In this document: piece after piece, positions 16,836-50,620 of the stretch
Layout: each line of letters begins with the position of its first letter
How positions within the stretch are numbered: the stretch's first letter is position 1
IMG/VR virus record: IMGVR_UViG_3300034104_001758
Coordinates: 1 to 61,688 of that record
Strand: one strand, 5' to 3'
Length of the DNA stretch: 61,688 bases
Source: a virus
Lineage: Duplodnaviria; Caudoviricetes
Notes under the pieces: generated by a model
Database searches by the model: none
Told to the model about the DNA's origin: nothing
The model's input: only the letters and a program-made list of their open reading frames with translations
Program-made: the position numbers and the translations under genes

Positions 16836-16950
16836 CTCCCTTCTATAATTATTCTACCCCAGTTTAGACATTCTAAACATTCCCCTTTAAACAAAGGGAT
16901 TTATTTGGTGTTTAACTAAACCAAAGTTGTGGTACAATATTCCTGAAGGG
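16836..16950. promoter_or_regulatory. divergent pair of CTAAAC repeat promoters
   Basis: Minus strand CTAAACTGGGGTAGAAT..GAAGGGAG; plus strand CTAAACCAAAGTTGTGGTACAAT..GAAGGG. Confidence 0.7.
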
Positions 16951-26054: not shown

Positions 26055-26381
26055 TTGCATCCTTATCCAGATTTTGACGGTACACAGCCCTGCACACAAG
26101 TAGATTCAGAAGCATGGTTCCCAGAAGGTACGTTGCGATACGCCAACCGTGTTGCGATTCAGATTTGTGAATCTTGCCATTATCAAGAAGAATGTCGGGA
26201 CTATGCGTTAGCATACAGAGTAGACGGAATCTGGGGAGGTACGACAGTTCCACAAAGAAAAGTTCTTAGAAAAGAACGTGGGATTATCGCACTTCCAGTA
26301 GTTGCAATTTTTTCAACTACACCAGAAGCCATAAAAGCACGAGAGAGACGTGCAAAAAAAAGAGAAGAAGAATCCCACTAA
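26055..26381 (+). CDS. whiB: WhiB-family transcription factor
   Basis: C....WFP...IC..C.....C..YAL.....GIWGG.....R. Confidence 0.9.
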   Translation: MHPYPDFDGTQPCTQVDSEAWFPEGTLRYANRVAIQICESCHYQEECRDYALAYRVDGIWGGTTVPQRKVLRKERGIIALPVVAIFSTTPEAIKARERRAKKREEESH

Positions 26382-26831: not shown

Positions 26832-27040
26832 TGATTACTAGGACTGCCCTAGCGGTGATGGTGATTATTGGTGTCGTTTATTGGCGCCAATACACCATCC
26901 CTGTTATTGGCTGGATTTCTTTCTTTTTGTGGTCAGTTGCTTGGCTGACTCTTGCCCTGAGACCTCGAATTCGCCAAAAATCCTTATACGAAAGCATTTA
27001 TCCCGAAGATTGGGAAGTCGAAAAAAGGTCTCCTAAATAG
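26831..27040 (+). CDS. small membrane protein
   Basis: Two hydrophobic segments. Confidence 0.5.
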   Translation: MITRTALAVMVIIGVVYWRQYTIPVIGWISFFLWSVAWLTLALRPRIRQKSLYESIYPEDWEVEKRSPK

Positions 27041-27046
27041 GTTTAT

Positions 27047-27095
27047 CTAAACCATAGTTGTGGTATCCTTTTTATAGAAGGGAAGGGTGGTCACA
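27047..27095 (+). promoter_or_regulatory. CTAAACC repeat promoter and leader
   Basis: CTAAACCATAGTTGTGGTATCCT...GAAGGGAAGGGTGGTCACA. Confidence 0.7.
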
Positions 27096-27245
27096 GTGGC
27101 TATTAAAATGCCAGTTCAGGAAACTGTAGTTTGTGTAAGTTGTGATTCGGTTCAAGAAGTTATGTGGTCAGAATACGGAGCAATTGCTCCGTGTATAGAT
27201 TGTGACGGAGCGCCAGTTTACTTGGTAAAGGCTTGTGACCTATGA
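27096..27245 (+). CDS. small zinc-ribbon protein (49 aa)
   Basis: Hand-translated MAIKMPVQETVVCVSC...CIDC. Confidence 0.6.
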   Translation: MAIKMPVQETVVCVSCDSVQEVMWSEYGAIAPCIDCDGAPVYLVKACDL

Positions 27246-27568
27246 AATGGTATTCAAGTCCTGAAAGCCGTCAGATGGACATTAATTCAGAAGCCGTAGG
27301 CGACCTTGGGATTGACGAAGGCTTTATTGCGTCAGGCAAGATTACTGCTAACGGTTTGAGACAAGCGGGCAGTTGGCTTGGAACTTACTGTGCAGAATTT
27401 CTTGACCAAGAAGAAAAGCAAGAAATGTTTGACGCATACGTCTGGTTGATGGAAGAAGCAGATAGGCGCGATTCCCGTAAAGCAACCAACGAAGCAAAAC
27501 GACAGTTTGCTCAAGAAAACGGAATTCCATTTAGTCAAGTTCGAGTATCTAAGAAAGTGGGAGTGTAA
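27242..27568 (+). CDS. hypothetical protein
   Basis: ATGA coupling. Confidence 0.6.
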   Translation: MKWYSSPESRQMDINSEAVGDLGIDEGFIASGKITANGLRQAGSWLGTYCAEFLDQEEKQEMFDAYVWLMEEADRRDSRKATNEAKRQFAQENGIPFSQVRVSKKVGV

Positions 27569-27753
27569 TGGAAAATCTAGTAGGAAAAATTATTTCTTAT
27601 GAATCTGGAGAATTATCAAACGATGAAATCTATGAGTTCTTTCAGGAACTTATAGATACTGGAATGGCTTGGAAGTTACAAGGTTCTTATGGTCGCGTTG
27701 CTCAGGGCTTAATTGAACTGGGAATCATAGAACCGAGCGTAAGCGTTGGATAA
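27568..27753 (+). CDS. conserved small phage protein
   Basis: YE.GEL......FQ.LIDTG.AW.LQG.YGR.A..LI..G. Confidence 0.7.
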   Translation: MENLVGKIISYESGELSNDEIYEFFQELIDTGMAWKLQGSYGRVAQGLIELGIIEPSVSVG

Positions 27754-27919
27754 TTTGGATAGCGCTCCCGTTGGAGTTCAATTTATTTTTGACAATGAAG
27801 ACGGTAGCCAAGTTCTTGTAACCGTTTGGGGCGAGACCGATGCTCGCATTGCTCTACGCCCTGAGCCGTTTAGCAGTTGGTCTCCTCCAGTATTTCCGAC
27901 CAAGGTTGAAAAGATTTAA

Positions 27920-28921
27920 TTGAAATTTATTGAATTGTTTGCTGGCATTGGTGCTTTCCGTTTAGGCTTGGAAAACACTGGTCACGAATGTGTATGGGCA
28001 AATGAAATCTTGCCAGCCCCTAGGAGAATTTATGAACGACAGTTCGGACACGCACCAGACCCACGAGATATTAGAAATGTTTCCGCTGGAGACCTACCAG
28101 ACGCAGACTTGCTTTGTGGAGGATTTCCTTGTGCCACTTTTAGCGTTGCAGGAAAACGTACAGGGTTCTCATTGGAAGACACGAGAGGAACTCTCGCTTT
28201 TGAAATGTTTAGGCTCGCACGGGATAAGCGAATACCATACATTCTCTTTGAGAACGTCAAAGGATTACTCAACCACGATAACGGACGAACCTTCGCAGTC
28301 ATTCTCGGAGTCTTGGATGAGATGGGGTATGACTGTCAATGGGAATTGCTTAACAGCGAAAACTTCGGAGTCCCACAACACCGAGAACGAATCTTCGTTG
28401 TGGCAAATCTTAGAGGACACCCCAGACCCAAAGTATTTCCTATCGGAAGAACGGGTTCAAAAAATGATAGAGACAGCGAATCAGAAGAAAGAGCGCAAAT
28501 CTCTGAGTGGAGTCGAAGAGACGGAGCCTTTAGACACCACGGAACAATCGCACCTACTCTTTTAGCGGCGATGGGAACGGGTGGCGGAAACGTCCCTTAT
28601 GTAACTGTCAAACCAGTTCTAACAGTTAACCGCGATGAGAAGCGCCAGAACGGGCGCCGAATAAAAGACGATGGTGATTCTGCGTTTACATTGACGGCTC
28701 AAGACCGACATGGAGTTGCTCTTGATGACGGAGATAAAACCGTAATCCGCAAACTAACCCCGCTTGAGTGTGAAAGACTGCAAGGGTTCCCAGATGAGTT
28801 CACTAAGTATTACGAAGACGGCTCACTGGTTTCAGACAACGTAAGGTACGAGCGTCTTGGACGCACCATAACAATCCCAGTAGTTGAAGAGATAGGTAAA
28901 GGACTTCATGTTTTCTTTTGA
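27920..28921 (+). CDS. C5-cytosine DNA methyltransferase family, predicted carboxymethyltransferase
   Basis: Motifs I FAGIG, IV GFPC, VI ENVKG, VIII QHRERIF, IX RKLTPLECERLQGF, X YERLGRTI (Arg at the usual Asn). Confidence 0.9.
   Translation: MKFIELFAGIGAFRLGLENTGHECVWANEILPAPRRIYERQFGHAPDPRDIRNVSAGDLPDADLLCGGFPCATFSVAGKRTGFSLEDTRGTLAFEMFRLARDKRIPYILFENVKGLLNHDNGRTFAVILGVLDEMGYDCQWELLNSENFGVPQHRERIFVVANLRGHPRPKVFPIGRTGSKNDRDSESEERAQISEWSRRDGAFRHHGTIAPTLLAAMGTGGGNVPYVTVKPVLTVNRDEKRQNGRRIKDDGDSAFTLTAQDRHGVALDDGDKTVIRKLTPLECERLQGFPDEFTKYYEDGSLVSDNVRYERLGRTITIPVVEEIGKGLHVFF
27990..28565 (+). CDS. nested +1-frame ORF resembling the M.EcoHK31I beta polypeptide
   Basis: W..WGM..NG...T...SE.......SL..ILE......KYFLS; true start uncertain. 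Confidence 0.45.
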   Translation: MYGQMKSCQPLGEFMNDSSDTHQTHEILEMFPLETYQTQTCFVEDFLVPLLALQENVQGSHWKTREELSLLKCLGSHGISEYHTFSLRTSKDYSTTITDEPSQSFSESWMRWGMTVNGNCLTAKTSESHNTENESSLWQILEDTPDPKYFLSEERVQKMIETANQKKERKSLSGVEETEPLDTTEQSHLLF

Positions 28922-29540
28922 GACCATAGATAATTTTGACGACCACATTGCAAGTTCAATTCCAAATTATGACTTGCTTAATGAATCAGTGTTAAGCCTT
29001 TCAAAGTTTTTTGTTGTTCCAGAAACTAGGGTCATTGACCTAGGTTGCTCTACAGGTAAGTTGCTAAAGGCAATTGAGCACTCTGGAATAAAGTTTGGAA
29101 TTGATAAAGCAGAAAATCTTTTGCCAGAAGATGAAATCAATACTCTTTTTGTAGATTGCCCGATTGAAGACTTTAGAGAGTTTGGAAATACGAGTTTGGT
29201 GCTATCGCTTTTTACACTTCAATTCATGCCTAGAAAGTCTCGTTTAGATGTCCTGTGTCGAATCCATGACGGGATGATTGACAAGGGAGCGTTTATCTGG
29301 GCTGAAAAGGTTTACGCAACTAGCGGGGTTGAACAAGATTTAATGAACTTCGCGCATTACGACTTCAAGCGAAAAAACTTTACTGCTGAAGAGATTCTGA
29401 GTAAAGAAGAGGACTTGCGCTCCATTATGCGTTTAAACACATCGGATGAAAATGAGCGCTTGGCTCGTGAAGCAGGATTTGGTAAGGGAATAAAATTCTG
29501 GAAATTCTTTAATTTTGAAGCCACGCTGTACGTTAAATAG
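28908..29540 (+). CDS. CmoA-like (carboxy-SAM synthase-like) class I methyltransferase
   Basis: F.F....FDDHI..SIP.Y, DLGCSTG, FTLQF, EK, K...L...M, W...NF. Confidence 0.75.
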   Translation: MFSFETIDNFDDHIASSIPNYDLLNESVLSLSKFFVVPETRVIDLGCSTGKLLKAIEHSGIKFGIDKAENLLPEDEINTLFVDCPIEDFREFGNTSLVLSLFTLQFMPRKSRLDVLCRIHDGMIDKGAFIWAEKVYATSGVEQDLMNFAHYDFKRKNFTAEEILSKEEDLRSIMRLNTSDENERLAREAGFGKGIKFWKFFNFEATLYVK

Positions 29541-31029: not shown

Positions 31030-32019
31030 GTGGGACACATAGTTCGCAAAGCCCGACCCCGTGTTTCTTCGGCGCCGATGTTTACTGGGGCTGAACAGCA
31101 AATTTACGAAATTATTAAGACTTCGCTTTATCGCATGGGTCGCACTGTTGACGCTGATGCAATGGCTCGCGCAATTATTAACTTGCAACCAGATGTCTTA
31201 ACAAAAGTTTTAACCAGTTTAACTATTGGTGAATTGCAAGCAGTTTTACGTCAAGGAATTCTTGCGGTCATAAACAACGCTGGCAAATTAGCAGTTGACG
31301 AAATTCAACCAGTAATTTCTGCTACTCCGTCTTGGGGAAATGCTTTCACAGTTACAGGTAAGCCAAATACCAAACTTCGCTTTAACGTAAACAATCCCCT
31401 TGCAGATGATTTTGCAGACAAACAGGCTGGACGCTTAGTCACAGCAATTGACGAATCAATGCGCTCGGCTATCCGAACCGTAATTAGTGAATCATTCAAG
31501 AATCAGATTCCAGTTGACCTTACGGCTTCAAGGCTTCGGCAATTTGTTGGTTTGCACCCGCGTTGGGCATTGGCTGTAGACCGCTATTTCACGCGCCAGT
31601 ACGAAAGTCTTAGGAATAATGGCGTTACCCACGCAAAAGCGCTTGAAAGGGCTGAGGTGGTCACTGAGACCTATCGTAGGCGCTTGATACGGGCACGCTC
31701 GTCAATGATTGCTCGAACCGAGATTCAGATTGCTCAAAACTGGGGTCGTCAGTTGGCTTGGCAACAGGCTTCAGACGGTGGTTGGGTTGACCCAGACGCT
31801 CAAAAAGTTTGGAAAACCGCTTCCGCAACTATGGGCGGAGTTCCCCCGTGTGACCGTTGTGCCCCTATGGAGGGCGAGAGCGTGCGTTGGAACCAATCTT
31901 TCTCTAATGGTCTACTAATGCCACCTGCTCATCCACATTGTCGCTGTACGGCGTTCCTAATGCCACCTGACAGAGGTTTAAATGATGCTGAGTACATTCG
32001 GACGGGCATTGTTCGATGA
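31030..32019 (+). CDS. MuF-family head morphogenesis (minor head) protein
   Basis: IARTE...K.W......C..C.......PPAHPHCRC. Confidence 0.85.
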   Translation: MGHIVRKARPRVSSAPMFTGAEQQIYEIIKTSLYRMGRTVDADAMARAIINLQPDVLTKVLTSLTIGELQAVLRQGILAVINNAGKLAVDEIQPVISATPSWGNAFTVTGKPNTKLRFNVNNPLADDFADKQAGRLVTAIDESMRSAIRTVISESFKNQIPVDLTASRLRQFVGLHPRWALAVDRYFTRQYESLRNNGVTHAKALERAEVVTETYRRRLIRARSSMIARTEIQIAQNWGRQLAWQQASDGGWVDPDAQKVWKTASATMGGVPPCDRCAPMEGESVRWNQSFSNGLLMPPAHPHCRCTAFLMPPDRGLNDAEYIRTGIVR

Positions 32020-34040
32020 AATCCGTATTTGTATTTCCACCACTTCGTAAACATCAAGCGGGTCAACATGACCAAGAAACTCACGGCTCTTGGGCAACTG
32101 GGAATTTTACTTCAGCAGGTAAAGATGGTTCTTATGATGTTTATGACCACCCAAGTGGCTCAAAGATTTATTTTCAAACTAATCCAGCCATCTTAGATAC
32201 AACTACAGAAGACATAAGAATTAGGCGCGAAGAAGCAATTGGTTATGTTGATGATTTGCTTACTAAATACCCCTTGTCTGACGTAACATTTGTATTTGGT
32301 AATGGAGTTGATGAAAAATACCGCGCAAGTGGAGTGACGCTACCCTACTTTGGAGAACAAGGAAAAGAATCTTGGGGCTTTCCTCTAGATTCAGAAAAAC
32401 CAAACTCTCCAGAAATTATTGACAGTTGGATTAGCACTAACGTACCTAACATTTCGCGTGAAAAAATTAAAGGTGCTTTAGTTGTTTTTCAACCTGAAAT
32501 GTTTGGTAGGAAAAAAACAGGAACACCAAAAACTTTTGGAGAAGTTGCTGAAGAACATTTTATGGCTTTTTCAAATTCTGATTCTCATGTTGGCTGGAAT
32601 GAAAATGGTCTTAAAACAATTATTACCCACGAGTATGGTCATCTTTTAGACCAAAGAACTTATGAAAAATCAGTTAGCGATTTTGGTTCTTTTTCACTTG
32701 AATCCACATCTGATTATGGGCGTAAAAACAGTCGAGAATTATTTGCTGAAACTTTTACCGCTTGGGAATTAGAACGAGATAATCCCAAGTATCAAGCAGG
32801 GTTTGAGATTTTTAATTTTGATAATTTAAGTTCTCTAGTTAAATCTATTTCAGGTTTTCATATTCAAGAATCTTTAGACCCTAATTTTTCTTATGTTTTG
32901 ATTGAATTTGGTGGGATGCAAAAGCACCAAGCAGGAAACCATGACCAAGAGTCACATGGAAGTTGGGCTGTTGGTAGCGATGGCATGGATACTGACTACC
33001 GAATGTCTCACCGTCCACCTGACCCAGAGGACGGCGCTCCAGCGCATGACCTAACTGGTGGCGGTGCTATTTACCCAGAAAATGTTTACGACAAAGATGG
33101 CGCACGCATTTACGCTGGCGGAGAGCCTGAAATGGCTAGACGAGTTCATTCGATTATTACTTCAATGCGCGGAAACCCAAATGCCAAGGTGCAGATTTAT
33201 CGAGCAGTTCCCAAGGGCACAAGACAAGTTAACGTGGGTGACTGGGTAACTATTGACCGCGAGTACGCTGAAGTGCACGGTCAAAGCAACTTAAACAATG
33301 ACTATGACATTCTCAGCAACACAGTTAACGCTGACGAAATCTACACTGACGGTAATTCTTTGTATGAGTGGTCTTACCACCCACGAGTTCAAAAACATCA
33401 AGCGGGTCAACACGACCAGACCACACACGGGTCATGGGCAACTGCTAACGGATACAAACTTGCATCAAAAGATGACCTTCCGTCTCTAGATTCAGCAAAT
33501 TACGATTCAACGGTGCGAAACGCCAGAGATAATTACGTTGGTTTTGGCTACACATGGATGAACGCCTACCTTCGTGATGGATACATTGAAGACACAGTAA
33601 AAATAATTATGAGCGATGAGATTTCAAAAGATGAAGCAATCGGTCAAATAGAGTCTTTAAAAAGCGCCTTGTACGAAACACAAACAACACAAGATTTAAC
33701 CGTAACTAGATGGACACGAACTGGCGAAAGCATTATTGGAGAAAAATTTTCCGAAACGTCAGATTTTGAAAGCCTTATTGGAAAGACTTATCACGCTAAG
33801 GGCTTTACATCTACTTCCGCTAAACCCCATGAGAGCGTAAACGATTCTTACAAGGCACAATCAAAGGTTTTAGCAAACATTCATATGCCAGCAGGTACTT
33901 ATGGCGCTACCGTTGGCAATGACCGAGAAAGCGAATTTATTCTTGCCCCAGATACTTTTTTTGTAGTTATGGGAGTAAACGATATAGGCGAAGGTAGAAT
34001 TTCATTAGACCTTTTAGTGACGGGACAGGGCAATGGATAG
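32016..34040 (+). CDS. three-tag polyprotein: zincin, ART-like domain, VIP2-type ADP-ribosyltransferase
   Basis: HEYGH..SDYG..N..E.FAE; YRAV..GDWVT..EW; MNAYLR..VTR..FTSTS..ESEFIL. Confidence 0.75.
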   Translation: MKSVFVFPPLRKHQAGQHDQETHGSWATGNFTSAGKDGSYDVYDHPSGSKIYFQTNPAILDTTTEDIRIRREEAIGYVDDLLTKYPLSDVTFVFGNGVDEKYRASGVTLPYFGEQGKESWGFPLDSEKPNSPEIIDSWISTNVPNISREKIKGALVVFQPEMFGRKKTGTPKTFGEVAEEHFMAFSNSDSHVGWNENGLKTIITHEYGHLLDQRTYEKSVSDFGSFSLESTSDYGRKNSRELFAETFTAWELERDNPKYQAGFEIFNFDNLSSLVKSISGFHIQESLDPNFSYVLIEFGGMQKHQAGNHDQESHGSWAVGSDGMDTDYRMSHRPPDPEDGAPAHDLTGGGAIYPENVYDKDGARIYAGGEPEMARRVHSIITSMRGNPNAKVQIYRAVPKGTRQVNVGDWVTIDREYAEVHGQSNLNNDYDILSNTVNADEIYTDGNSLYEWSYHPRVQKHQAGQHDQTTHGSWATANGYKLASKDDLPSLDSANYDSTVRNARDNYVGFGYTWMNAYLRDGYIEDTVKIIMSDEISKDEAIGQIESLKSALYETQTTQDLTVTRWTRTGESIIGEKFSETSDFESLIGKTYHAKGFTSTSAKPHESVNDSYKAQSKVLANIHMPAGTYGATVGNDRESEFILAPDTFFVVMGVNDIGEGRISLDLLVTGQGNG

Positions 34041-34917
34041 ATTTACCGATTCATTTCTGTCTGAAGTAAGTCCAGACAAGGCTTTACAACATCGCATACG
34101 CGCCGAAGTAATTCTTGGTCGCTCGCTTTTGACAAAGCACCTAGCGGGTCAACACGACCAACGCACTCACGGAAGTTGGGCTGGCGGTGGTGCTGGAGTT
34201 GACATTACCGCTGACGTGGACAAACTTTTTTACAATCCAGACGGAAGCGTAAATAAAGAAACTCAAGATGTTATTAATCAAATGACCGAAAAAGAATTAG
34301 CAAACGGTCATCGCTATGGCGATAATGCTTTAAAAATTATTGCTGAACGTCAAGGATTTACAGGAAAACCTAAAACAGTTTCTACGGTTGCAGAACTAAA
34401 AAAATTGCAAGAAACAGAAGGCGGAATGATTGTTTATAGAGGTATTTCAGAGTGGAAAAGACTGGAAGTAATACCAGAACCTTATACACCGACAGTTATT
34501 ACTTACACGGCAGAACAGGCTGTAGAGCAATTCAAAAGAGGTGAATACTACGCTGGTTTTGGAGCGTTTGGAACTGGCACTTATACAACAGTAAAAGGAG
34601 ACGAAGCGTCTGCTTACGCTAATGACAAAGACGAAGATAATGACACTTATGGCAACGGAAAAGTTATGGCTATTCACATTCCAAAAAATGCCAAAATTCC
34701 AACACAAGAACAAGTAACTAGAGCCATGAAAATGGTTAATTATGATGATGGACCTAATGTAACAACCTACAAACAAAATGTTGCTCGTATTTTAGCGGCG
34801 CAGGGTTTTCAAGTTTACAATGCTGGTTTGTTACAGGACGACAAGAAAGATTATTTTGTTGTTTTAGACAGGTCTATGCTTACGGTTGCAGACCAAGATT
34901 GGATGATTGGATTATGA
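34033..34917 (+). CDS. tag plus ART-like domain
   Basis: VYRG...G.GAFG.G.YT......A..YA. Confidence 0.55.
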   Translation: MDRFTDSFLSEVSPDKALQHRIRAEVILGRSLLTKHLAGQHDQRTHGSWAGGGAGVDITADVDKLFYNPDGSVNKETQDVINQMTEKELANGHRYGDNALKIIAERQGFTGKPKTVSTVAELKKLQETEGGMIVYRGISEWKRLEVIPEPYTPTVITYTAEQAVEQFKRGEYYAGFGAFGTGTYTTVKGDEASAYANDKDEDNDTYGNGKVMAIHIPKNAKIPTQEQVTRAMKMVNYDDGPNVTTYKQNVARILAAQGFQVYNAGLLQDDKKDYFVVLDRSMLTVADQDWMIGL

Positions 34918-35705
34918 TGACTCCAACCGAATCACGCCGTTACGGTCTTATGGTCAGAGACTTTACTCCCGATGAAGCCAAGGCTTACAACGACCACCTT
35001 CTTGCAGGTAAAAGGGCAGAAGACTTTTTTGCCAAGATGGAAAAGCACCTTGCTGGTCAACACGACCAGAGTTCGCACGGGTCATGGGCTATTGATACTT
35101 TTGATGATTTAGGTGTTTGGGTTAAAAAATCAGAAGAACAATACGGAATAAATAGAAGAACAATTCAAGCAGAAATTGAGTTGCAACAAGTTGCCCAAGG
35201 ATTTAATTCAAGTTCTAATCCTGAGTATGCAAGTTCTGTTTCTATCTATCAAGAAAAATACGGAACTGTAATTAATGAAGCGCTAAGAGACCCATTAATT
35301 TCTACGCAGGGAGTTGAAAAACAAATTGCAGACTTAGACAAAGTATTAGATAGCGCCCCACCTTTAAAAGAACAAATTCTTGCGTATCGAGGAATAAATG
35401 GTGAAGGTCTTGAGTTTTTTGAAAACCTAAAAGTTGGCGATGTATTTCAAGATAAAGGATATGTGTCTACAACTTTAAACCCTAAAACTGCTGGGACTTT
35501 TGCTAATTCTGATTTATCTTCTTATGCTCAAGGAATGGTATTGCAATTCCATTTACCTAAAGGAACCAAAGGATTGTTTCCTACTCCGTTTTTAGGAATA
35601 GGGACGCTTTCATTCTCGGAATTAGAATTTTTATTACCGAGAGACACCAAATTTAAGGTAACGCAAATTCGCGGTAAAGTCATGGACTTGGAGATAACCC
35701 AATGA
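34914..35705 (+). CDS. tag plus VIP2-type (R-S-E) ADP-ribosyltransferase
   Basis: INEALR, AYRG, DKGYVSTT, ELEFLLPRDTKFKV. Confidence 0.8.
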   Translation: MMTPTESRRYGLMVRDFTPDEAKAYNDHLLAGKRAEDFFAKMEKHLAGQHDQSSHGSWAIDTFDDLGVWVKKSEEQYGINRRTIQAEIELQQVAQGFNSSSNPEYASSVSIYQEKYGTVINEALRDPLISTQGVEKQIADLDKVLDSAPPLKEQILAYRGINGEGLEFFENLKVGDVFQDKGYVSTTLNPKTAGTFANSDLSSYAQGMVLQFHLPKGTKGLFPTPFLGIGTLSFSELEFLLPRDTKFKVTQIRGKVMDLEITQ

Positions 35706-37228
35706 CCCCTGAAGTTCAAAAATTTGGCTATGACTCTGCTCAGGGTCTAAGTCTTGTTTTAGAAAAACCAAAATCTGTTTATGTAGTTCCGCCACTAGCC
35801 AAGGCTGTTGACGATGACTACAACCCTCTTGCCAAATACACAAAAACTGCTCACGTTGCTTTAGGTCGCTCACTTGGAATCAAGGCTGGTGAGTTCATAA
35901 CCGAAAAACATCAGGCTGGTAAGCACGACCAAGAAACTCACGGCAATTGGGCTGGTGACAGATTCAGTCCAGATTCAGTTAAGTCTGCCCGTGATGGAGC
36001 AAAAGAGTACGCCTTTAAGTTTGGAATTAAGCAAGATGACAGCATTGAGTATGACGAAGTGGTTGCAAACCGCGCTCGTGCATCCAAGATTGCTGACGCT
36101 TATGACGACCTACCGAAGTACGACAAAGACGCTGTAGATGAGTACGAAGCCCTAGCCACCGAAGTCGAACAACAGTATGACTACATGACCAAAACCCTTG
36201 GCATCAAGGTTGAGTTCATTTCGGAAGACCCATACAAGACATCTAAAGAAATGTTTGCTGAAGTTTCTACTGGCAAACTACGGGTTCTTAAAACGGAATC
36301 TACTGGAGCACACCCATTATTTAGCAACCAGCAAAACGATAAGTTCCGTGCAGTTCACGATTACTTTGGTCACGCGGCTACTGGTCGAGGGTTTGGGCAA
36401 GACGGCGAAGAAGCGGCGTGGGTTCATCACTCACAAATGTTCGGCAAAAAGGCTCGTGGCGCTCTAACTACTGAAACCCGTGGGCAGAATTCTTGGTACA
36501 ACACCCGCAAGAATGGTTTTGCTGACCAAAAGGTTGCGTTACTTCCTGAGCAGTATTGGGAAGTTCCAGCGGTGTTTGCAAAGCATCAAGCAGGTCAACA
36601 TGACCAATCTACGCACGGCAGTTGGGCTACTGGAATTGCTGAAAAGATTTCTTTGAAAACTGCTAGTCTTAAAGACCAAGGTATAACGCAAGAGTTCATA
36701 AAAGACCCAAAAAGAAAAGCAGAATTATTTGTAAATTTGGAAAATGTCGCTCTTTCTGCAATTGAATCAGATAAAAAATTAAACCCTGAATCAGATTTAG
36801 ATTTAAGTGAAATTTTGTATACTCAAGAATTTTTAATGACTTCTAGAGCAATGGATTGGGAGAATGATAATCCAAAACTTGCTTTTAAATCTGTTTTATT
36901 AACCAATAAAGGAAATGTTGCTGGAGCGATGGCTGTATCACTTGAAAGCAATTCTAACGGTGAACCCATTGTTGAAATTCATTACTTAGGTACAACTGGA
37001 ATAGTAGACGGTGCTGGAAGTATGCTTTATGGGCAAGCAATTAATTATGCCTACAAAAATAAAATGGGCTTGCAGTTGTATCCATTAGACAAAGCAGTTC
37101 CTTTTTGGATAAGCATGGGTTTTGAGCGTGACACTTCTGATTCTAATTATTTGCAAATACCCGCCAATAAAATTGAATTACTATGGAAAGAATTAACAAT
37201 AGTAGAAAGTGCGATGCCTAATGTCTAA
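35702..37228 (+). CDS. two-tag polyprotein: HDxxGH/TETRGQ domain plus GNAT-like acetyltransferase
   Basis: FRAVHDYFGH..GEEAAW..TETRGQNSW; IHYLG....GAGSML.......AVPFW..MGF. Confidence 0.65.
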   Translation: MTPEVQKFGYDSAQGLSLVLEKPKSVYVVPPLAKAVDDDYNPLAKYTKTAHVALGRSLGIKAGEFITEKHQAGKHDQETHGNWAGDRFSPDSVKSARDGAKEYAFKFGIKQDDSIEYDEVVANRARASKIADAYDDLPKYDKDAVDEYEALATEVEQQYDYMTKTLGIKVEFISEDPYKTSKEMFAEVSTGKLRVLKTESTGAHPLFSNQQNDKFRAVHDYFGHAATGRGFGQDGEEAAWVHHSQMFGKKARGALTTETRGQNSWYNTRKNGFADQKVALLPEQYWEVPAVFAKHQAGQHDQSTHGSWATGIAEKISLKTASLKDQGITQEFIKDPKRKAELFVNLENVALSAIESDKKLNPESDLDLSEILYTQEFLMTSRAMDWENDNPKLAFKSVLLTNKGNVAGAMAVSLESNSNGEPIVEIHYLGTTGIVDGAGSMLYGQAINYAYKNKMGLQLYPLDKAVPFWISMGFERDTSDSNYLQIPANKIELLWKELTIVESAMPNV

Positions 37229-38288
37229 AGGAATAGCAAGTTTTACTGACGAACCGTTTTTGCTTAACATGATTAACAAAAAGCAGTTGGCTAAACACTA
37301 CGCAGGACAGCACGACCAGTCCACGCACGGCAGTTGGGCGCACGGTATGGGTGGCGATACCTTTTCAGACGACCCTAGGTACCAAGAAGCATTAAAAGAA
37401 TATGGAAAGTTAAGCGAAAACGATAAAGTTTTGTCTACTTCAAATGATGTTTTTTGGGACAGTCCTATAGGAAAACTTATTATTGAATACGCAGATAAAA
37501 AGTTTCCAAATAATAAAACAATTAGCAGTGCAAAAAATAATGACAAACCAGTAAAGAAAAATTTAGAAATAAGAGAAGGTTTAAAAACTCGTTTTATAGA
37601 TGAAGGTCTTGCACAACAAGATTATGAGGAATCAGGAATCTATAAAATGTATTTTGAAACTATTTATCCTGACATCATAAATGTTGTTACAAGCGGAAAA
37701 CTTGCAATTGCTATGGACGTAGGCTCTTTTCGAAATATGATAGAAAGTGGAAAAAGCGAATTTAAAAATCAATTTCAGACTAAATCCTCTAATGGTCTTC
37801 TTGACCCATCCATGAGAAAAAAGGGAGAATTGGCTAATCAGTACATCCCCGTAGAAGTAAAACCAAGTGACAGACCTATTTATGGGTATGTATCTCCAGA
37901 TGACTCCTTAGATAACGTAACTTCTCTTGGAACATTCCAATACGGAGAAGTAAAATTTGTATTAAAAGATTCCGTAAGAGATAGAGCAACTATGACTATT
38001 GGTGATTCTCTTGGTACTAGGGCTTTTCCTATGAAAATAAATAAAACTCCAAGTGTAAAAGATGTAATGAACGCGACAGCCAGAATGATAAGACAAGCCT
38101 ACGGCAGGGGCAACAGAGATTGGAACGGGCAAGATAGTTTTGCTGAAACAGAATACTTTGAAGCACAAATTTTTGGTGGCGTTTCTGCAAAAGACATTGA
38201 AATGATTTATGTCCCAAATAACTGGGATTTACCTTCTAATTTTGCTTCTGTTTTTCCCAATATTGAAGTTGTCAGATACGATTCATAG
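37221..38288 (+). CDS. tag plus DUF3626-like (possible ART-fold) domain
   Basis: KNQFQT, RPIYG, YG.V.F.LK..VR.R.T.T.GDS, YFEAQIFGGV...DIE. Confidence 0.65.
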   Translation: MSKGIASFTDEPFLLNMINKKQLAKHYAGQHDQSTHGSWAHGMGGDTFSDDPRYQEALKEYGKLSENDKVLSTSNDVFWDSPIGKLIIEYADKKFPNNKTISSAKNNDKPVKKNLEIREGLKTRFIDEGLAQQDYEESGIYKMYFETIYPDIINVVTSGKLAIAMDVGSFRNMIESGKSEFKNQFQTKSSNGLLDPSMRKKGELANQYIPVEVKPSDRPIYGYVSPDDSLDNVTSLGTFQYGEVKFVLKDSVRDRATMTIGDSLGTRAFPMKINKTPSVKDVMNATARMIRQAYGRGNRDWNGQDSFAETEYFEAQIFGGVSAKDIEMIYVPNNWDLPSNFASVFPNIEVVRYDS

Positions 38289-38302
38289 TAGAAGGGAATA
38301 AA

Positions 38303-38479
38303 ATGATAAAAGGACAAGTAATCGCAGTAAGGGCTGACGGCGCTCAGTTCGTTTTTGATTCTATTGATGAACAGGAAACTATTTCAGGTTTTTTGATTTT
38401 AAAAAACGGCGCCCAAACTGAAATCGGTCTTATGGATATGTTTACCAAGGTCGGAGACTGGGAGCGAGTTGACCAGTAG
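38303..38479 (+). CDS. small protein (58 aa), candidate immunity protein
   Basis: Hand-translated MIKGQVIAVRADGAQFVF...KVGDWERVDQ; GAAGGGA RBS. Confidence 0.65.
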   Translation: MIKGQVIAVRADGAQFVFDSIDEQETISGFLILKNGAQTEIGLMDMFTKVGDWERVDQ

Positions 38480-38509
38480 TTAGCAATCCTCATGGGGTAA
38501 TCTATCCTC

Positions 38510-40048
38510 ATGTCACGCGCTAACCGTATTGCTCGCCTTGTCGCCATCCAGCAGGGCACTGAGTTCATTTTGCTCAAGCACCAACAAGGTAAGCACGACC
38601 AAGCCACGCACGGTTCATGGGACACAGACCGAAGCAACAACAAATCTGATTTTAAATACCCAGTTCAAGACGCAATTGATAAAGTTATTAAAGGCGAAGT
38701 TGGCAAAGTAGTTCCTGCCGATGCTGAGTTTTTGCTAGACAAAATGGCTGACCGCGAAGACAACCCAGACTTAACCAATCTTGAAATTGTTGGTACCCAG
38801 TTATTTACTCGCGACAATCTTGGAATTATGCGCGACCAGATGCCACAAGTTCCTAGCGGAGCCAAGGATGAGTTCCTTGATGAAATGACTAAGCGCGGTA
38901 TTGGGGTTAAGAGAGAAGATGTATCTCCTCAAAAACTGCACCCGATTCAGGCTGAAATTTCCGCTTCCAAAACTGGAAAGATTCTTCGTGACCTAAATCA
39001 GAACGGTCACAAAAAAGGTGATGGCGCCAGAATTGTTGTTTCTTCAGATAACTATGTAATTGACGGACACCACCGCTGGGCGGCTTCTGCCTTTATGTCT
39101 TTAAACGATGGCGATGAAAAGATTCCTGTATTGCGCGTTGACATGACACACATGGAATTAATTGATGTTGTTCGGGCTTGGAATAAAGCGATGGACATTA
39201 AACCAATTGGCATGGGGGAAAGCAACACCTTTAAGAAGGCTTGGGTTGAGTTCGAATTAGCGGTTATCAAGGGAATCCTTACAACCGAAATGCAAAAGCA
39301 CCTAACAGGACAACATGACCAAGAAACCCATGGCAGTTGGGCACAGGGACGTGAATACGTTGCTGGTCAATGGGAACCAGTTGAAACCGATAAATTAGTT
39401 CAGCAAGATGTTGATTGGTATAAATCAGAAAACCCCAACGCAACGCCTAGTCAAATCTCAGCACTTAAATCAAGAAGTAAAAAGTATTACAAAGATAGAA
39501 CAGTTGTGAGCAATGGAAGCACTGTAGTAACTTTTGAAAACAGAATTGACAAAAATAAAACTGGTGTTGATGAAAATGACAGAAAAACAATTCTTGAACA
39601 CATTGATTACTTACAAGAAAATTATCCTTTAGAAAACATTTCTGTTATAGCGGATAGCCAAGGCGGAAGTTCGGTTTGCTCAATGACTGAAAATGGAAAC
39701 GCTATTCGAATATCTCAAGTATGGGCACAAAAATCTAAAAAATTTGCGTACATGGGTTCTAAAGACAAACTCTATCCCCTTGATGAAGGAGAATTTGGTT
39801 TAGAATTTACTTTGTCACATGAATGGGGACACGCCTTCAATAATCCCTACAAACAGTTAAGTCAAAAATACGGAAAATTTATTGAAAAACACAAAAATTT
39901 ACTAGACACAGTTAGCACTTACGGTAGAAAATCTGAAGGAGAAGGTTTTGCCGAAACTTTTGCTCAAAATTCTTTAGAAAATAAATATGGTATTGAAAAA
40001 ATGGAAATAACTAAATTATTTGAAGTGGAGGTACTTGGAAATGTCTGA
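38510..40048 (+). CDS. two-tag polyprotein: ParB/Srx-like domain plus zincin
   Basis: R.QMPQ..L.P.Q.EI..YVIDGHHRWAA; HEWGH..STYG....E.FAE. Confidence 0.7.
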   Translation: MSRANRIARLVAIQQGTEFILLKHQQGKHDQATHGSWDTDRSNNKSDFKYPVQDAIDKVIKGEVGKVVPADAEFLLDKMADREDNPDLTNLEIVGTQLFTRDNLGIMRDQMPQVPSGAKDEFLDEMTKRGIGVKREDVSPQKLHPIQAEISASKTGKILRDLNQNGHKKGDGARIVVSSDNYVIDGHHRWAASAFMSLNDGDEKIPVLRVDMTHMELIDVVRAWNKAMDIKPIGMGESNTFKKAWVEFELAVIKGILTTEMQKHLTGQHDQETHGSWAQGREYVAGQWEPVETDKLVQQDVDWYKSENPNATPSQISALKSRSKKYYKDRTVVSNGSTVVTFENRIDKNKTGVDENDRKTILEHIDYLQENYPLENISVIADSQGGSSVCSMTENGNAIRISQVWAQKSKKFAYMGSKDKLYPLDEGEFGLEFTLSHEWGHAFNNPYKQLSQKYGKFIEKHKNLLDTVSTYGRKSEGEGFAETFAQNSLENKYGIEKMEITKLFEVEVLGNV

Positions 40049-41507
40049 AATAATTGATTTAGAAAATTTATCAGATGACGAATTGTACTTTTTTGCTACA
40101 AATAAAGTTAAAAAAGTAATGCCTTTATTTATTTCTAGTTTGACTTCTGTTCAAAAGCACTTAACGGGTCAGCATGACCAGTCCAGCCACGGCGCTTGGT
40201 CTACAAAATTAAACCCAGATGTGGCTTCTGACATTGTTAGATTTACTCAGGAATGGGGCGGATTATCAATCAACATGGTTGATGGTTCGATGCCTATATC
40301 TGGTTACATGGTGGCAAAACCGCCAGAATTCGGCAGAATTGTGGACGAAGTTGACTTTGTTAACCCAGTTAAGGGTCCAAAAATCCTTTCTGATTACATG
40401 AAAACCCATAAAAATGACCTAGGTAATGGAAGAAACTATCTTGGCACATGGCTAAATGATAGTAAGGTGTATCTTGATGTTTCTGAAAACATTCAGGAAT
40501 TGTTTGAAGCAATAAGAAGAGGTCGGGAACGTAACCAGAAAGCAATCTGGGACGTTGCTAACCTAAGTGAAATAGACACAGGAGGGACTGGTCTTGTCAA
40601 AGAAAGAAATCAAGATGGTGGAGTTGAAGAACATCTCGGAGATGACAGACGCGGAGATAGACGAGTACGCACTGAAAATCTGGGGAAGTCTTCAGGAGAA
40701 GAAAGATTAACAGTATTTGTTAAACCTCCAGTTGTAAAACATTTGGCTGGTCAACATGACCAGAGTTCCCATGGCAGTTGGGCTGGAACAACAAGCCTTG
40801 GTGCTGGTTCTGGTTTAAGCGCTCAAGAAATAAGAAACTTAAAAATAGGTGCAGGAACACAAGAAACTCAACAACAAGAAGTTTACAAAGCCGAAAATCT
40901 TGCAAGAGAAGAAATTTCACCAATTGATAGAAATTTAGAAGAACCAAGTTTTTCTTTTCCCAGTCCGTTTCGTTCTCAACCATTTGTTTACACCAGTGCT
41001 GAAGAAAAAGCATTTAAAAAGGCTTGGAAAAAATGGGAAACAGAAAGAAAAAAGTATATTGAATCTGAGTTGGGAAACAAACATTTAGATGGGACTATTG
41101 GTGGAGTAAGAAATTATGTAAACGAAGTTATTGATTCTGATTGGTTTAGAGAAGAATACGGCGTACCAAGCACATTCAGCATAGATAATGGTAAAAAGTT
41201 TGCAGAACACCAACCAGAAATAAAAACTCTTACATCTAAAACATACGGTGGATTGTATAGATTTAGAGATTATTACATACACGGGAAAAGAAGTTCAATA
41301 GAAATTAGAAATGATACTCTTAAATATGAACCCACCATTCTTCACGAAATTGCTCATTATGCTACTGCTATTAGCGCAACTAATAAGCACTCAGGTCATG
41401 GTAAAGAATTTGCTTTTAATAATCTAAAAATTGCAAAACAATTTATGCCAAAATACGCTATTGCTCTTGAGAGATACTATAAAGAAATGGGAATTTCATA
41501 TGAATGA
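40041..41507 (+). CDS. two-tag polyprotein: unknown domain plus SprT-like zincin
   Basis: GY.V...GTW.....YLDVS....A...G....Q.AIWD; ILHEIAH....HSGHGKEF. Confidence 0.65.
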   Translation: MSEIIDLENLSDDELYFFATNKVKKVMPLFISSLTSVQKHLTGQHDQSSHGAWSTKLNPDVASDIVRFTQEWGGLSINMVDGSMPISGYMVAKPPEFGRIVDEVDFVNPVKGPKILSDYMKTHKNDLGNGRNYLGTWLNDSKVYLDVSENIQELFEAIRRGRERNQKAIWDVANLSEIDTGGTGLVKERNQDGGVEEHLGDDRRGDRRVRTENLGKSSGEERLTVFVKPPVVKHLAGQHDQSSHGSWAGTTSLGAGSGLSAQEIRNLKIGAGTQETQQQEVYKAENLAREEISPIDRNLEEPSFSFPSPFRSQPFVYTSAEEKAFKKAWKKWETERKKYIESELGNKHLDGTIGGVRNYVNEVIDSDWFREEYGVPSTFSIDNGKKFAEHQPEIKTLTSKTYGGLYRFRDYYIHGKRSSIEIRNDTLKYEPTILHEIAHYATAISATNKHSGHGKEFAFNNLKIAKQFMPKYAIALERYYKEMGISYE

Positions 41508-41625
41508 CAAAGAACCAGAAGACTTTTATTTTGAAATAACTGAACCATTACCGCCAGATTATGTTCCGTTTCCAGAACTTGCTGGGCGTTTAATCGAGAA
41601 ACACGAACAAGAAACAGGGTCATAG
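41500..41625 (+). CDS. small acidic protein ending in a decayed tag
   Basis: MNDKEPEDFYFE...LIEKHEQETGS-stop. Confidence 0.55.
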   Translation: MNDKEPEDFYFEITEPLPPDYVPFPELAGRLIEKHEQETGS

Positions 41626-41676
41626 TACCTAGCGTGCACTAAAGTGGCATAAGGTTTGTCACCACTAGGAGTTCTC

Positions 41677-43041
41677 ATGTCTGTAGGTTTCTCGCATCTT
41701 AACGATGCTGAGTTGGAAACACTGCATAAATCACTGCACACTGATGTGGCAAACCCAGCAGTTCTTGAAGCCCATCACTCTGTAACTACCGAAATCCTTG
41801 CACGCGGTCTTGAGCACGGTCACGAAGATGACGAGTGGAATCGGGCAGTAGTTGAGTTGGAAATAGAAGACCAAATCCCAGTTTCTAAGGCTATTGCCGA
41901 AATGCCAACCGACATTGCCGAGCAGGTAATTGAATCTTTGGGCAATCCTGAGTTCGTTAAAAAGACTACATTGCTTACCGTTGATGGTTACACCTTAAAG
42001 TTTGACGCTTTTGAAAAGTCCGAAGAAGTAGAAATGCGTCTTAACGAAACCCAGAAAATGCTTTACGAAACCCTTGAAGCCGTTGTTGAGCGAGTTGGTG
42101 CTTTTGACCAAGGTGCAGGTGCTAACGGCGCTCACTACATGGAAAAAAATCCTTTTGTAAAAGAGGGAATGATTTGCGCCAACTGCGTCTTTTACGAAGG
42201 CGGTCAGGGCTGTGAGATTGTTACTGGGTTAATTGACCCAATGGCTTTATGTAAGTTCTGGATTATTCCTGAAGATTTACTTGATTCTTCAGTTAGCAAA
42301 CACCGAGCAGGACAACACGACCAAAAATCCCATGGGTCATGGGCTGGAAACAAAATACCTAATTTAGCACCAAACAAAATTGACGAAAGTAATCAGTATG
42401 GGGACGAAGCAAATTCTTTAGCAAGGGAATTGCGCGAAAGAATGATTTTAGCAGAACCACAATTAACTGCCGACATGGTTGAAATCGCAGATGCTAATTT
42501 TGGAACAATGCAAGGATTGGAAAATCGTGTAAAAAGCGAAGAATCTCTTGCCCGCAAAATTAAAAATGATTCTCTAGAATACGGTGGAGACATGAGACAG
42601 GCTACTCAAAAAGTTAGCGATGGCTTACGCTACAGCGTTACTTTTGATGAAGAAAATTACGCCGAAAGTGTTGTTTCTACTATTGCTACCTTGCAGGATA
42701 AAGGCTATCAAGTTTCTCGAACAAAAAACTTTTGGCAAAAAGGTGATGCCTACCAAGGAATTAACGCAAAAATCATTCACCCAAGCGGTTTTGAAGTAGA
42801 GTTACAATTTCATACTCCAGATTCTTGGGATGTTAAACAAAACAAAAGCGAAGAAATTTATCAAATGTATCGAGTTGAAACAGATAACAAAAAACGCTTT
42901 AAGCACTGGAAGTCAATGGCTAAAATGTTTGCTCAAGTTGCCGTTCCTATTGGAGTTGCGTCTATTGGAGACCCAGCAATTCAAGCCTTTACTGCTGGTG
43001 GAAAACAATTTATTTTTAAGGCTAGAGCGAGGAAAATGTAA
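41677..43041 (+). CDS. His-rich domain, HiPIP-like Cys domain, tag, and RelA/SpoT-fold Apk2/Tas1-like (p)ppApp synthetase
   Basis: EP.LT.DM..GLE.R.K..ESL.RKI..D.LRY..KN.W..Y.GIN..ELQFHT..S...K..Y..YR. Confidence 0.8.
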   Translation: MSVGFSHLNDAELETLHKSLHTDVANPAVLEAHHSVTTEILARGLEHGHEDDEWNRAVVELEIEDQIPVSKAIAEMPTDIAEQVIESLGNPEFVKKTTLLTVDGYTLKFDAFEKSEEVEMRLNETQKMLYETLEAVVERVGAFDQGAGANGAHYMEKNPFVKEGMICANCVFYEGGQGCEIVTGLIDPMALCKFWIIPEDLLDSSVSKHRAGQHDQKSHGSWAGNKIPNLAPNKIDESNQYGDEANSLARELRERMILAEPQLTADMVEIADANFGTMQGLENRVKSEESLARKIKNDSLEYGGDMRQATQKVSDGLRYSVTFDEENYAESVVSTIATLQDKGYQVSRTKNFWQKGDAYQGINAKIIHPSGFEVELQFHTPDSWDVKQNKSEEIYQMYRVETDNKKRFKHWKSMAKMFAQVAVPIGVASIGDPAIQAFTAGGKQFIFKARARKM

Positions 43042-49806: not shown

Positions 49807-50111
49807 TTGACCCACGAGACATAGCCGATACAGCCGTAGAACTGGTCTTTGGAGACCGTAATGACGACTATGGGCACCCATTAGACAACCTAGACAGAGC
49901 GGCGCGTATCTGGTCTGTAATCCTTGGAATAGAGGTCACAGCGGAGCAGGTTTGCCTATGTATGGAGGGCATGAAAATAGCCCGTGAAATCCACAAGCCG
50001 AAGATGGACAATCCAGTTGACGGCATTGGATATTGGCTTACTTTAGCCATGATTAGGCAGGAAAGATTAGAGCGCGAAATCCTCAAAAATGAGGGTTTAT
50101 CTAAACCGTAG
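49803..50111 (+). CDS. DUF6378-like protein
   Basis: GDR..DYG.P..N..R.A..WS......V...M...K.AR......D..VD..GY. Confidence 0.7.
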   Translation: MIDPRDIADTAVELVFGDRNDDYGHPLDNLDRAARIWSVILGIEVTAEQVCLCMEGMKIAREIHKPKMDNPVDGIGYWLTLAMIRQERLEREILKNEGLSKP

Positions 50112-50149
50112 TTGTGGTACACTTCTTATAGAAGGGAAGGGTGGTCACA
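50101..50149 (+). promoter_or_regulatory. CTAAACC repeat promoter and leader
   Basis: CTAAACCGTAGTTGTGGTACACT...GAAGGGAAGGGTGGTCACA. Confidence 0.7.
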
Positions 50150-50620
50150 GTGGCTAAATCAGCGTTTTGCGTAAAATGTGGAAGTAACGAGGTTTTCTGG
50201 TACCAAAATCGGAACCAAAAATGGGTTTTGTGTGAGCAGAAATCTCAAGATTATGAATTCGGAAAAGGTGGCTGGACTGCCCCTCACTATTGCGATGGCA
50301 ATGGCTTTAGCGTTGAAGAAATGATTCAATCTTACGAATCTTGCATTGAAGCCATCTTTAGCCAACAATTTGAAAACTTTGACTACGGAAAATTGAACGG
50401 TCAATTGAAGTCTTTGCGGAGCGCTCTTAAAGAAAACGTCCCAAGTATCCCAGTTGAAGTTTTTAAGGGTCGGAAAGTTCCAGTGGGAACTGTCGGAGAA
50501 ATCTCATGGGTTGGGATTGACCAGTTTGCAAACGTCAAAGTTGGAATAAAAGACGCTCAGGGCGAAGTTCATTTCACTGCCGTGAGCAACGTGAAATTGG
50601 TTGAGTTTGCAGAAAACTAA
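50150..50620 (+). CDS. early-type hypothetical protein
   Basis: CVKCG; V.KGRKVP.GT.G...W.G. Confidence 0.7.
   Translation: MAKSAFCVKCGSNEVFWYQNRNQKWVLCEQKSQDYEFGKGGWTAPHYCDGNGFSVEEMIQSYESCIEAIFSQQFENFDYGKLNGQLKSLRSALKENVPSIPVEVFKGRKVPVGTVGEISWVGIDQFANVKVGIKDAQGEVHFTAVSNVKLVEFAEN

Follow-up and report, generated by a model that had tools for sequence, protein, structure and literature searches.

A predicted DNA carboxymethylation gene pair in an uncultured tailed phage: an M.HhaI-like cytosine C5 transferase overlapping a CmoA-like gene

Natural DNA carboxymethylation has been described by Yang et al. (Nat Commun, December 2025; PMC12783734) for the CmoA-CmoX-CmoY system of Synechococcus phage S-B43. 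In that system, SpCmoA makes carboxy-S-adenosylmethionine (carboxy-SAM, Cx-SAM) from S-adenosylmethionine (SAM) and prephenate with a kcat of 2.33 per s, SpCmoX attaches the carboxymethyl group to C5 of cytosines within GC sites, giving 5-carboxymethylcytosine (5cxmC), and SpCmoY, an ATP-dependent amide ligase resembling asparagine synthase, ligates glycine to 5cxmC; in the virion DNA of S-B43, the glycine amide was found and 5cxmC was not. The crystal structure of SpCmoX (8YF3, 1.9 Å) shows the carboxymethyl group in contact with Arg350, which replaces Asn304 of HhaI. Cx-SAM is the sole cofactor accepted by wild-type SpCmoX, the R350N variant is dead, and DNA with 5cxmC resists HhaI (PMC12783734). 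The survey filter of that study, 'SPPC' (S95 P96 P97 C98) together with R350, yielded 5,615 candidates, and ParBc proteins occurred on many CmoX contigs (PMC12783734). Here, we analyze a pair of overlapping genes, a CmoX-like transferase gene and a CmoA-like gene, in the IMG/VR virus record IMGVR_UViG_3300034104_001758, the whole of which (61,688 bases, CheckV completeness 100%) is referred to below as the window. We consider it likely that the pair makes 5cxmC in DNA via carboxy-SAM, a reading based on sequence, structure prediction and gene linkage. An earlier note on this DNA had proposed exactly such a combination of Cx-SAM synthase and cytosine carboxymethyltransferase and had mentioned that natural phage examples were reported. 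This statement was right, as Yang et al. is the only paper that our full-text literature search returned with a title or abstract reporting natural phage DNA carboxymethylation, and the proposal gained support, all of its predictions at the sequence level having been borne out. The system is thus already published, and the window provides a further, somewhat divergent example of it rather than a new discovery. The coordinates of the features are given in Table 1.

The transferase gene starts with TTG directly after the TAA of the upstream open reading frame (ORF). In a related locus (L005), an ATG stands at the equivalent position and supports this start; the database gene call (P0003, 317 aa) begins 16 codons downstream and would drop motif I FAGIG (27920-27967). 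The PF00145 match spans residues 1-328 of the 333-aa protein, TIGR00675 is matched with an E-value of 2.9e-78, and the catalytic residues of C5-methyltransferases (C71, E111 and R155/R157) are aligned and kept. In the structural model, the catalytic domain has a predicted local distance difference test score (pLDDT) above 90, the catalytic loop (residues 72-88) and the target recognition domain (TRD, residues 179-265) fall below 50, and the best fold matches are C5-methyltransferases. The window contains no second PF00145 gene.

The feature of interest lies in motif X, where the codons GAG CGT CTT GGA CGC ACC ATA (28850-28870) encode E311 R312 L313 G314 R315 T316 I317. In the HMMER alignment, 'yerlgrti' of the window is placed over 'ykqfgnsv' of M.HhaI, with R315 over Asn304, and in the MAFFT alignment, 'ERLGRTI' is placed over 'ERVGRMV' of SpCmoX, with R315 over Arg350; the earlier claim that motif X reads LGRTI, with Arg315 encoded at 28862-28864, is therefore confirmed by the sequence and by both alignments. 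The SpCmoX residues named by Yang et al. map to identical residues of the window enzyme (Phe25 to F7, Glu47 to E29, Asp69 to D50, Cys98 to C71, and Arg350 to R315; MAFFT). Like SpCmoX, the window enzyme has Arg for the motif X Asn within the same E-R-x-G-R string and a small residue after the catalytic Cys, which is Ser in SpCmoX and Ala in the window.

According to Lukinavicius et al. (NAR 2012, PMC3526304), Gln82, Tyr254 and Asn304 of M.HhaI are close to the transferable group and line its pocket, and the Q82A replacement lowers methylation approximately 16-fold and favors larger groups. The natural window enzyme is altered at both conserved positions of this pocket (Gln82 to Ala72 and Asn304 to Arg315); an orthodox M.HhaI-type enzyme has P-C-Q and G-N framing the methyl group, and the window enzyme has P-C-A and G-R. 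These are exactly the two positions that were engineered (Q82A/N304A) to open the cofactor pocket. M.HhaI itself methylates DNA with SAM as part of a restriction-modification system; unlike in the engineered variant, it is Arg and not Ala that takes the place of Asn in the window, where the gene is joined to a predicted Cx-SAM synthase gene. A comparable case, named by Yang et al. (PMC12783734), is M.MpeI N374K, in which a basic side chain in place of the motif X Asn likewise switches the enzyme to Cx-SAM, but this variant is engineered, carries Lys instead of Arg, is specific for CG and needs the host CmoA.

These observations raise the question of whether the altered pocket is peculiar to a single sequence or characterizes a lineage. 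Both GFPCATFS and ERxGRT were present in all 120 of the best database homologues (60-100% identity to the window transferase), and because all of these close homologues carry it, Arg315 is neither a chance variant nor a sequencing error. A broader sample consisted of the best 150 representatives at 50% identity from a library of 1.84 billion proteins. Here, PC-Ala with Arg was found in 6 sequences and PCQ with Asn in 111 (109 by script and 2, reading GNAV, by inspection); the exceptions were PCQ with Asp and PCP with Asn (one each), and 30 representatives were unreadable for one or both motifs, including 3 fragments with PC-Ala or Arg alone. Among representatives with both motifs readable, neither PCA with Asn nor PCQ with Arg occurred, and all 6 Arg-type sequences had PC-Ala. 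In Synechococcus phage S-B43, S-CRM01 and PaBG, motif IV reads SPPC-S/K-xFS, and all three have E-R-x-G-R in motif X. On this sequence evidence, the window enzyme belongs to a large clade of M.HhaI-like enzymes whose motif IV contains GFPC-Ala and whose motif X contains ERxGRT; the published 'SPPC' filter, taken literally, would miss this clade.

Another important question is whether the Arg type arose once or repeatedly. A quick maximum-likelihood tree was built from 57 rows (the window, 10 Arg-type sequences, 42 of the 64 eligible Asn-type representatives, 3 SPPC-type sequences and 1 Staphylococcus phage protein) and 236 conserved-core columns, with the trait columns removed. The GFPC-Ala clade was monophyletic (99), and the SPPC sequences were placed elsewhere on a branch 6.4 long. 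When both Arg-type clades were held together, the tree was 18.1 log-likelihood units better, with a p-value of 0.865 in the approximately unbiased test (p-AU). A convergent origin of Arg in the GFPC-Ala and SPPC clades was therefore rejected as a claim, since the joint tree fits better; one common origin of the Arg type fits no less well, and the placement of the long SPPC branch is tentative.

A further link between the transferase and carboxy-SAM is the arrangement of the genes. A scan of IMG/VR for relatives of the transferase found 152, and the locus counts given here refer to the best 80 of these 152. The CmoA-like gene lies directly downstream of the transferase gene in 80/80 of these related viral loci, and the overlap of the two ORFs, which the earlier note had also pointed out, amounts to the identical 14 nt in 78 of them; in the remaining 2, the ATG was not found by the rule used. 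Translational coupling via this overlap is likely. As the other neighbors are not conserved (the downstream portal gene was found in 7/80 loci), the pair appears to travel as a unit. As a control, P0125, an Asn-type relative 54% identical to the window enzyme, was used as the query of an identical scan. It gave 20 viral loci, and no CmoA- or CmoY-like gene was found within 4 kb in any of them (0/20); all 20 had PCQ, and GN was present wherever motif X was readable. When 3-kb flanks were examined around 80 close SpCmoX relatives, CmoA was found in 63-64 and CmoY in 23. The order of the genes distinguishes the window, with the transferase followed by the overlapping CmoA, from S-B43, where the order is CmoA-CmoY-CmoX.

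Three further candidates for parts of the module were rejected. The 57-aa ORF directly upstream (27746-27919) is carried by only 6/80 related loci, and the 61-aa upstream ORF encodes a DUF7417 protein, which is not a conserved component. A ParB_N-HNH protein (6982-8394) considered as a counterpart of the published ParBc partner lies 20 kb away and adjoins the terminase genes. This last protein, 470 aa long, combines two regions resembling ParB_N with an HNH nuclease at its C-terminus; its gene immediately precedes those of the small and large terminase, and the protein looks packaging-related.

The CmoA-like gene is preceded by a Shine-Dalgarno-like site (AAAGGA) 6-11 nt upstream of its ATG. 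Its product matches TIGR00740 (E = 2.8e-24) and phrog_4752 (E = 4.2e-50), and its best matches in the phage database belong to the S-B43 group. Compared with the proven SpCmoA, it shows 43% identity in the MAFFT alignment and 38% in tblastn (E = 5e-42 over 228 residues). The crystal structures of CmoA/YecO were matched by HMMER at E-values from 3.5e-19 to 1.2e-17, and the next, unrelated methyltransferases at 2e-4. The AlphaFold model, based on a 37-sequence alignment, has a mean pLDDT of 89.3, and its best Foldseek matches are 1IM8 (YecO), 4IWN and 4GEK (E. coli CmoA), with template modeling (TM) scores of 0.84-0.87; small-molecule methyltransferases of the CysG/BelI type follow close behind by TM-score but are far weaker by sequence. 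An alignment of 68 phage-type CmoA sequences was made by adding 66 related loci to the window and SpCmoA (the other 14 of the 80 loci were dropped because the match ends before query residue 205, owing to a contig end or a partial match). The SAM-binding residues of the E. coli enzyme Tyr39, Asp62, Gly64, Ser66 and Phe137 are kept in 68/68 sequences and Asp89 in 67/68. Thus, the window protein has the fold and the SAM-binding residues of bacterial CmoA (E. coli 4GEK/4IWN, H. influenzae YecO 1IM8); unlike these enzymes of the transfer RNA (tRNA) uridine 5-oxyacetic acid (cmo5U) pathway, it has Glu for Arg199 and Leu for Asn132, has no CmoB partner and scores below the equivalog cut-off, and its product is predicted to serve DNA modification, not tRNA modification.

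The substitution at Arg199 deserves particular attention. In E. coli CmoA (PMC3663124), Arg199 forms a salt bridge with the cofactor carboxylate. In the 4IWN alignment, from which the numbering was counted with Tyr39, Asp62, Asp89, Asp117 and Phe137 (named in PMC3663124) as anchors, 'SKEEDLR' of the window lies over 'SQKRSML' of E. coli, which places Glu167 over Arg199. The earlier note had seen this substitution by eye and had cautioned that the cofactor could differ. As a fact of the alignment, the substitution stands, but the caution drawn from it is weakened, since the proven SpCmoA reads 'DKEKELR' at this position, with the same Glu and the same Arg four residues on, and an acidic residue occupies the position in all 68 phage-type sequences (Glu in 65, Asp in 3 and never Arg). 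Lys166 and Arg171 are invariant in 68/68. The window protein therefore resembles SpCmoA both in being an adjacent phage-borne CmoA and in this Glu with its downstream Arg. Residues 160-173 form a single helix in the AlphaFold model, so that Arg171 follows Glu167 by one turn and points to the same side.

Does the window also encode the third component of the published system? At E-values up to 10, no match to SpCmoY, to the CmoY-like protein of L005 or to PF00733 was found in the window, and the PF00733 control was positive in 14/14 known genomes; in this respect, the window differs from S-B43. A CmoY-like gene was found in 2/80 related loci (L003 and L005), in both directly upstream of the transferase gene. 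The protein of L005 (976-1815) has 279 aa, matches PF00733 (E = 2.1e-07) and is 28% identical to SpCmoY (E = 2e-19); the gene of L003 (3-539) is cut by the contig end. The DNA of L003 is 92% identical to the window from 27755 onward, and the slot of the CmoY-like gene is taken in the window by the DUF7417 ORF and other small ORFs. These asparagine synthase-like homologues tie the GFPC-Ala clade to the published pathway, and the ligase is a swappable accessory in this phage group. The other 78/80 loci lack a CmoY-like gene within 4-kb flanks, at least 900 nt of upstream sequence being present in 74/80. Because no CmoY-type ligase is detectable in the complete genome, free 5cxmC is the predicted end product. 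Neither CmoB (PF08003) nor a tRNA gene was found in the window, and a role in tRNA modification is therefore without a visible substrate or partner.

Several CmoA-like genes were also observed in other settings. In a Staphylococcus phage SPbeta-like genome (KT429160; L163, 5968-7667), cmoA is followed by a C5-methyltransferase homologue annotated as hhaIM, which has GSPCQSFT in motif IV and 'VVGGVI' at motif X, with Gly at the Asn/Arg position, and is thus CmoA-linked without the Arg signature. Erwinia phage pEa_SNUABM_32 (L164), Alcaligenes phage Afa-NA1 (L166) and MT835562 (L167) carry a CmoA-like gene with no recognizable C5-methyltransferase gene within 6 kb; their transferase may be of another family or be located elsewhere. 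In Erwinia phage pEa_SNUABM_32, a CmoY homologue (34% identity, E = 5e-52) lies 3 kb downstream of the CmoA-like gene.

The target site can be approached through the avoidance of short palindromes. In the window, AGCT was found 0 times against 249 expected, CCGG 0 against 107, GATC 0 against 163 and GGCC 7 against 132, and GCGC was the least depleted palindromic tetranucleotide (202 found, 206.5 expected). In 539 kb pooled from 80 related loci (L003-L082), which are related to one another and not independent, AGCT was found 0 times against 1,928 expected, GGCC 34 against 1,230 and GCGC 1,628 against 1,738. No such purge was seen in SPPC-clade loci. Modification of every GC would make the avoidance of AGCT and GGCC needless, and the target is therefore, unlike that of SpCmoX, probably not bare GC. 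As GCGC is spared and M.HhaI is the closest solved relative, GCGC or a motif containing it is the best guess, although this is only a hint; alternatively, the hosts may simply be without GCGC-cutting enzymes. Reading the target site from the structure was ruled out by the low pLDDT of the modeled TRD.

Taken together, these data suggest the following course of events. The CmoA-like protein, by homology to SpCmoA, would convert SAM and prephenate to carboxy-SAM, its synthesis presumably being coupled to that of the transferase by the 14-nt overlap. The transferase, which keeps the whole C5 catalytic apparatus (nucleophilic Cys71, the ENV Glu and the motif VIII Args), would bind carboxy-SAM in the remodeled pocket formed by Ala72 and Arg315, with Arg contacting the carboxylate, and would transfer the carboxymethyl group to C5 of target cytosines in the phage DNA. 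With no CmoY-type ligase, the modification probably stops at free 5cxmC. Its purpose may be protection of the phage DNA from host restriction, as suggested by the published HhaI resistance of 5cxmC DNA.

Several points weigh against this reading. The transferase is far closer to the true methyltransferase M.HhaI than to SpCmoX: M.HhaI is the closest solved protein by sequence (E = 2.2e-48, compared with 2.3e-11 for SpCmoX 8YF3), and in the fold search, M.HhaI entries reached E-values of ~1e-22 (3.2e-22) with TM-scores of 0.63-0.66, with 8YF3 at rank 19 (E = 1.1e-14). Identity to SpCmoX is only 28% (MAFFT), and the insertion that SpCmoX has between motifs IV and VI is missing. Motif IV reads G-F-P-C followed by A instead of SPPC-S, although we take 'SPPC' as a survey filter rather than a functional requirement. 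Specificity is unreadable from the structure because of the low-confidence TRD model. On the side of the CmoA-like protein, the residue aligned with the carboxylate-binding Arg199 is Glu167, and the idea that Arg171 may take over its role comes from helical periodicity in a predicted model; the scores (86.1 bits for TIGR00740 and 64.7 for NF011995) are below the NCBIfam equivalog cut-offs (193.3 and 285, respectively), these models having been built on bacterial CmoA of the tRNA pathway. The absence of a ligase covers relatives of three queries (SpCmoY, the L005 protein and PF00733), and several window ORFs have no family assignment. Finally, support for the proposed activity consists throughout of homology and gene linkage.

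These points can be read in different ways. That the transferase is an ordinary SAM-dependent enzyme forming 5-methylcytosine, with the CmoA-like gene serving an unrelated purpose, for example, tRNA cmo5U synthesis or SAM depletion, would agree with its nearest solved relative being a methyltransferase and with the intact catalytic motifs. However, both residues that contact the methyl group are changed, in step with each other and with the CmoA linkage, and Q82A by itself strongly impairs methylation by M.HhaI (PMC3526304); wild-type SpCmoX, which has the same Arg, does not use SAM (PMC12783734), and the genome has neither CmoB nor tRNA, all of which makes this explanation very improbable. 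It is also very unlikely, in our view, that the product of the CmoA-like enzyme is another SAM derivative instead of carboxy-SAM, with the transferase installing a different group. Glu at the position of the carboxylate-bridging Arg (PMC3663124), the unreached equivalog cut-offs and the nearly equal TM-scores of CysG/BelI enzymes speak for such a derivative, but SpCmoA makes Cx-SAM with the same Glu and downstream Arg, CmoA is matched with far better E-values (1e-17 to 3.5e-19) than CysG-type enzymes (2e-4), and the Arg of the transferase pocket is suited to an anionic group.

A different kind of alternative concerns the end product: 5cxmC could be an intermediate whose carboxyl group is extended or amidated by an unrecognised phage or host enzyme, giving a hypermodified cytosine comparable to the glycine amide of S-B43. 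The virion DNA of S-B43, which held that amide and no 5cxmC (PMC12783734), the CmoY-like gene directly upstream of the transferase gene in 2/80 relatives and the window ORFs without a family match, such as 13771-15273 (500 aa), are in its favor. We nevertheless regard it as unlikely, as neither SpCmoY, the L005 protein nor PF00733 has a match in a genome of 100% completeness, 78/80 related loci are without a CmoY-like gene in the flanks, and the conserved unit consists of two genes. The preferred reading thus remains a pair that makes 5cxmC via carboxy-SAM.

Table 1 Features of the gene pair and of other elements discussed in the window
Feature	Positions	Strand	Remarks
Repeat-element copy (CTAAACC..GTTGTGGTA..GAAGGG)	27040..27102	+	Heads an uninterrupted + strand ORF run, 27087-29540, ending with the two genes
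CmoX-like DNA cytosine C5 transferase gene	27920..28921	+	333 aa; PF00145 E 1.5e-71
Transferase motifs			I FAGIG; IV GFPC71-A72-TFS; VI ENV (E111); VIII QHRER (R155/R157); X E311-R312-L-G-R315-T
Catalytic Cys71 and Ala72 codons	28130..28135	+	Positions counted from the translation; Ala72 replaces Gln of PCQ (M.HhaI Gln82)
Motif X codons E311 R312 L313 G314 R315	28850..28864	+	Arg315 (CGC, 28862-28864) is the predicted carboxylate-binding residue
Overlap of CmoA start and transferase end	28908..28921	+	14 nt, ATG...TGA; transferase stop TGA at 28919-28921
Phage-type CmoA gene, predicted carboxy-SAM synthase	28908..29540	+	210 aa, ATG start
Glu167-Arg171 codons of the CmoA-like protein	29406..29420	+	Glu167 at the E. 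coli Arg199 position; Arg171 invariant
ORFs with the coding repeat	32016-34040, 34033-34917, 34899-35705, 35702-37228, 37209-38288, 38510-40048, 40020-41507, 41656-43041		

The larger genes of the window are all on the + strand, and the CmoX-CmoA pair closes a run of small early-type genes immediately before the portal and head genes. The source is an uncultured tailed phage, and its host is probably an actinobacterium, unlike the cyanobacterial host of S-B43: a WhiB-family gene (26055-26381, E = 1.7e-12), a portal protein 56-58% identical to the portals of ~60 kb Arthrobacter phages and a G+C content near 43% point in this direction. A search for prophage copies in 185,579 species genomes gave only 2 weak or partial matches, both in metagenome-assembled genomes, and did not indicate a host.

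An intergenic repeat family (CTAAACC..GTTGTGGTAC..GAAGGG) of 35-63 nt was observed at 16916, 18093, 21217, 22238, 23044, 27047 and 50101. The 7 copies of repeat families D5/D6 each lie just upstream of an ORF start. The copy at 27040-27102 shares 94% identity with that at 50094-50156, and this stretch takes in five codons at the start of the ORF behind each. The intergenic repeats are probably phage promoter and ribosome-binding-site units; by its position, the copy at 27040-27102 would be a candidate promoter and ribosome-binding site for the run that ends with the transferase and CmoA-like genes. A simple sigma-70 scan did not detect this element.

Two other repeats were noticed. A coding repeat of 45-64 nt (32037-42359) encodes the peptide K-H-Q/L-A-G-Q-H-D-Q-x-x-H-G-S-W-A in at least 13 copies, distributed over eight large ORFs that follow one another downstream of the head-morphogenesis gene, with three copies in the first of these ORFs, and might represent a repeated processing or binding site. 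The record ends (1-164 and 61361-61686) share collagen-like G-x-T nonanucleotide repeats, which lie in ORFs running off the ends (the tail-collar ORF 1-1125 and the ORF 60935-61687); probably, a single repetitive tail-fiber gene is where the record is broken or circularly permuted.

Putting the separate lines together, we tentatively suggest, as a possibility that we ourselves hold with some doubt, that the window enzyme typifies a second branch of natural DNA carboxymethyltransferases, one that resembles M.HhaI, is marked by GFPC-Ala and ERxGRT and is missed by a literal 'SPPC' filter, that it belongs to a fused two-gene cassette spread among freshwater-type actinophage-like siphoviruses with free 5cxmC, and no amide, as the final base, and that it acts on the 4-bp site GCGC and not on every GC. 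If true, M.HhaI would have a natural counterpart that carboxymethylates DNA at a specific sequence. PC-Ala or PC-Ser in motif IV together with E-R-x-G-R in motif X may separate carboxymethyltransferases from methyltransferases more generally than 'SPPC plus Arg', and this two-position signature would recover a large candidate clade. The closeness to M.HhaI and the sparing of GCGC suggest a defined 4-bp specificity, which is desired for DNA labeling. For these phages, the GFPC-Ala clade may represent a minimal system of transferase and synthase without a ligase, and thus a candidate for a modification in which the free acid is the final base.

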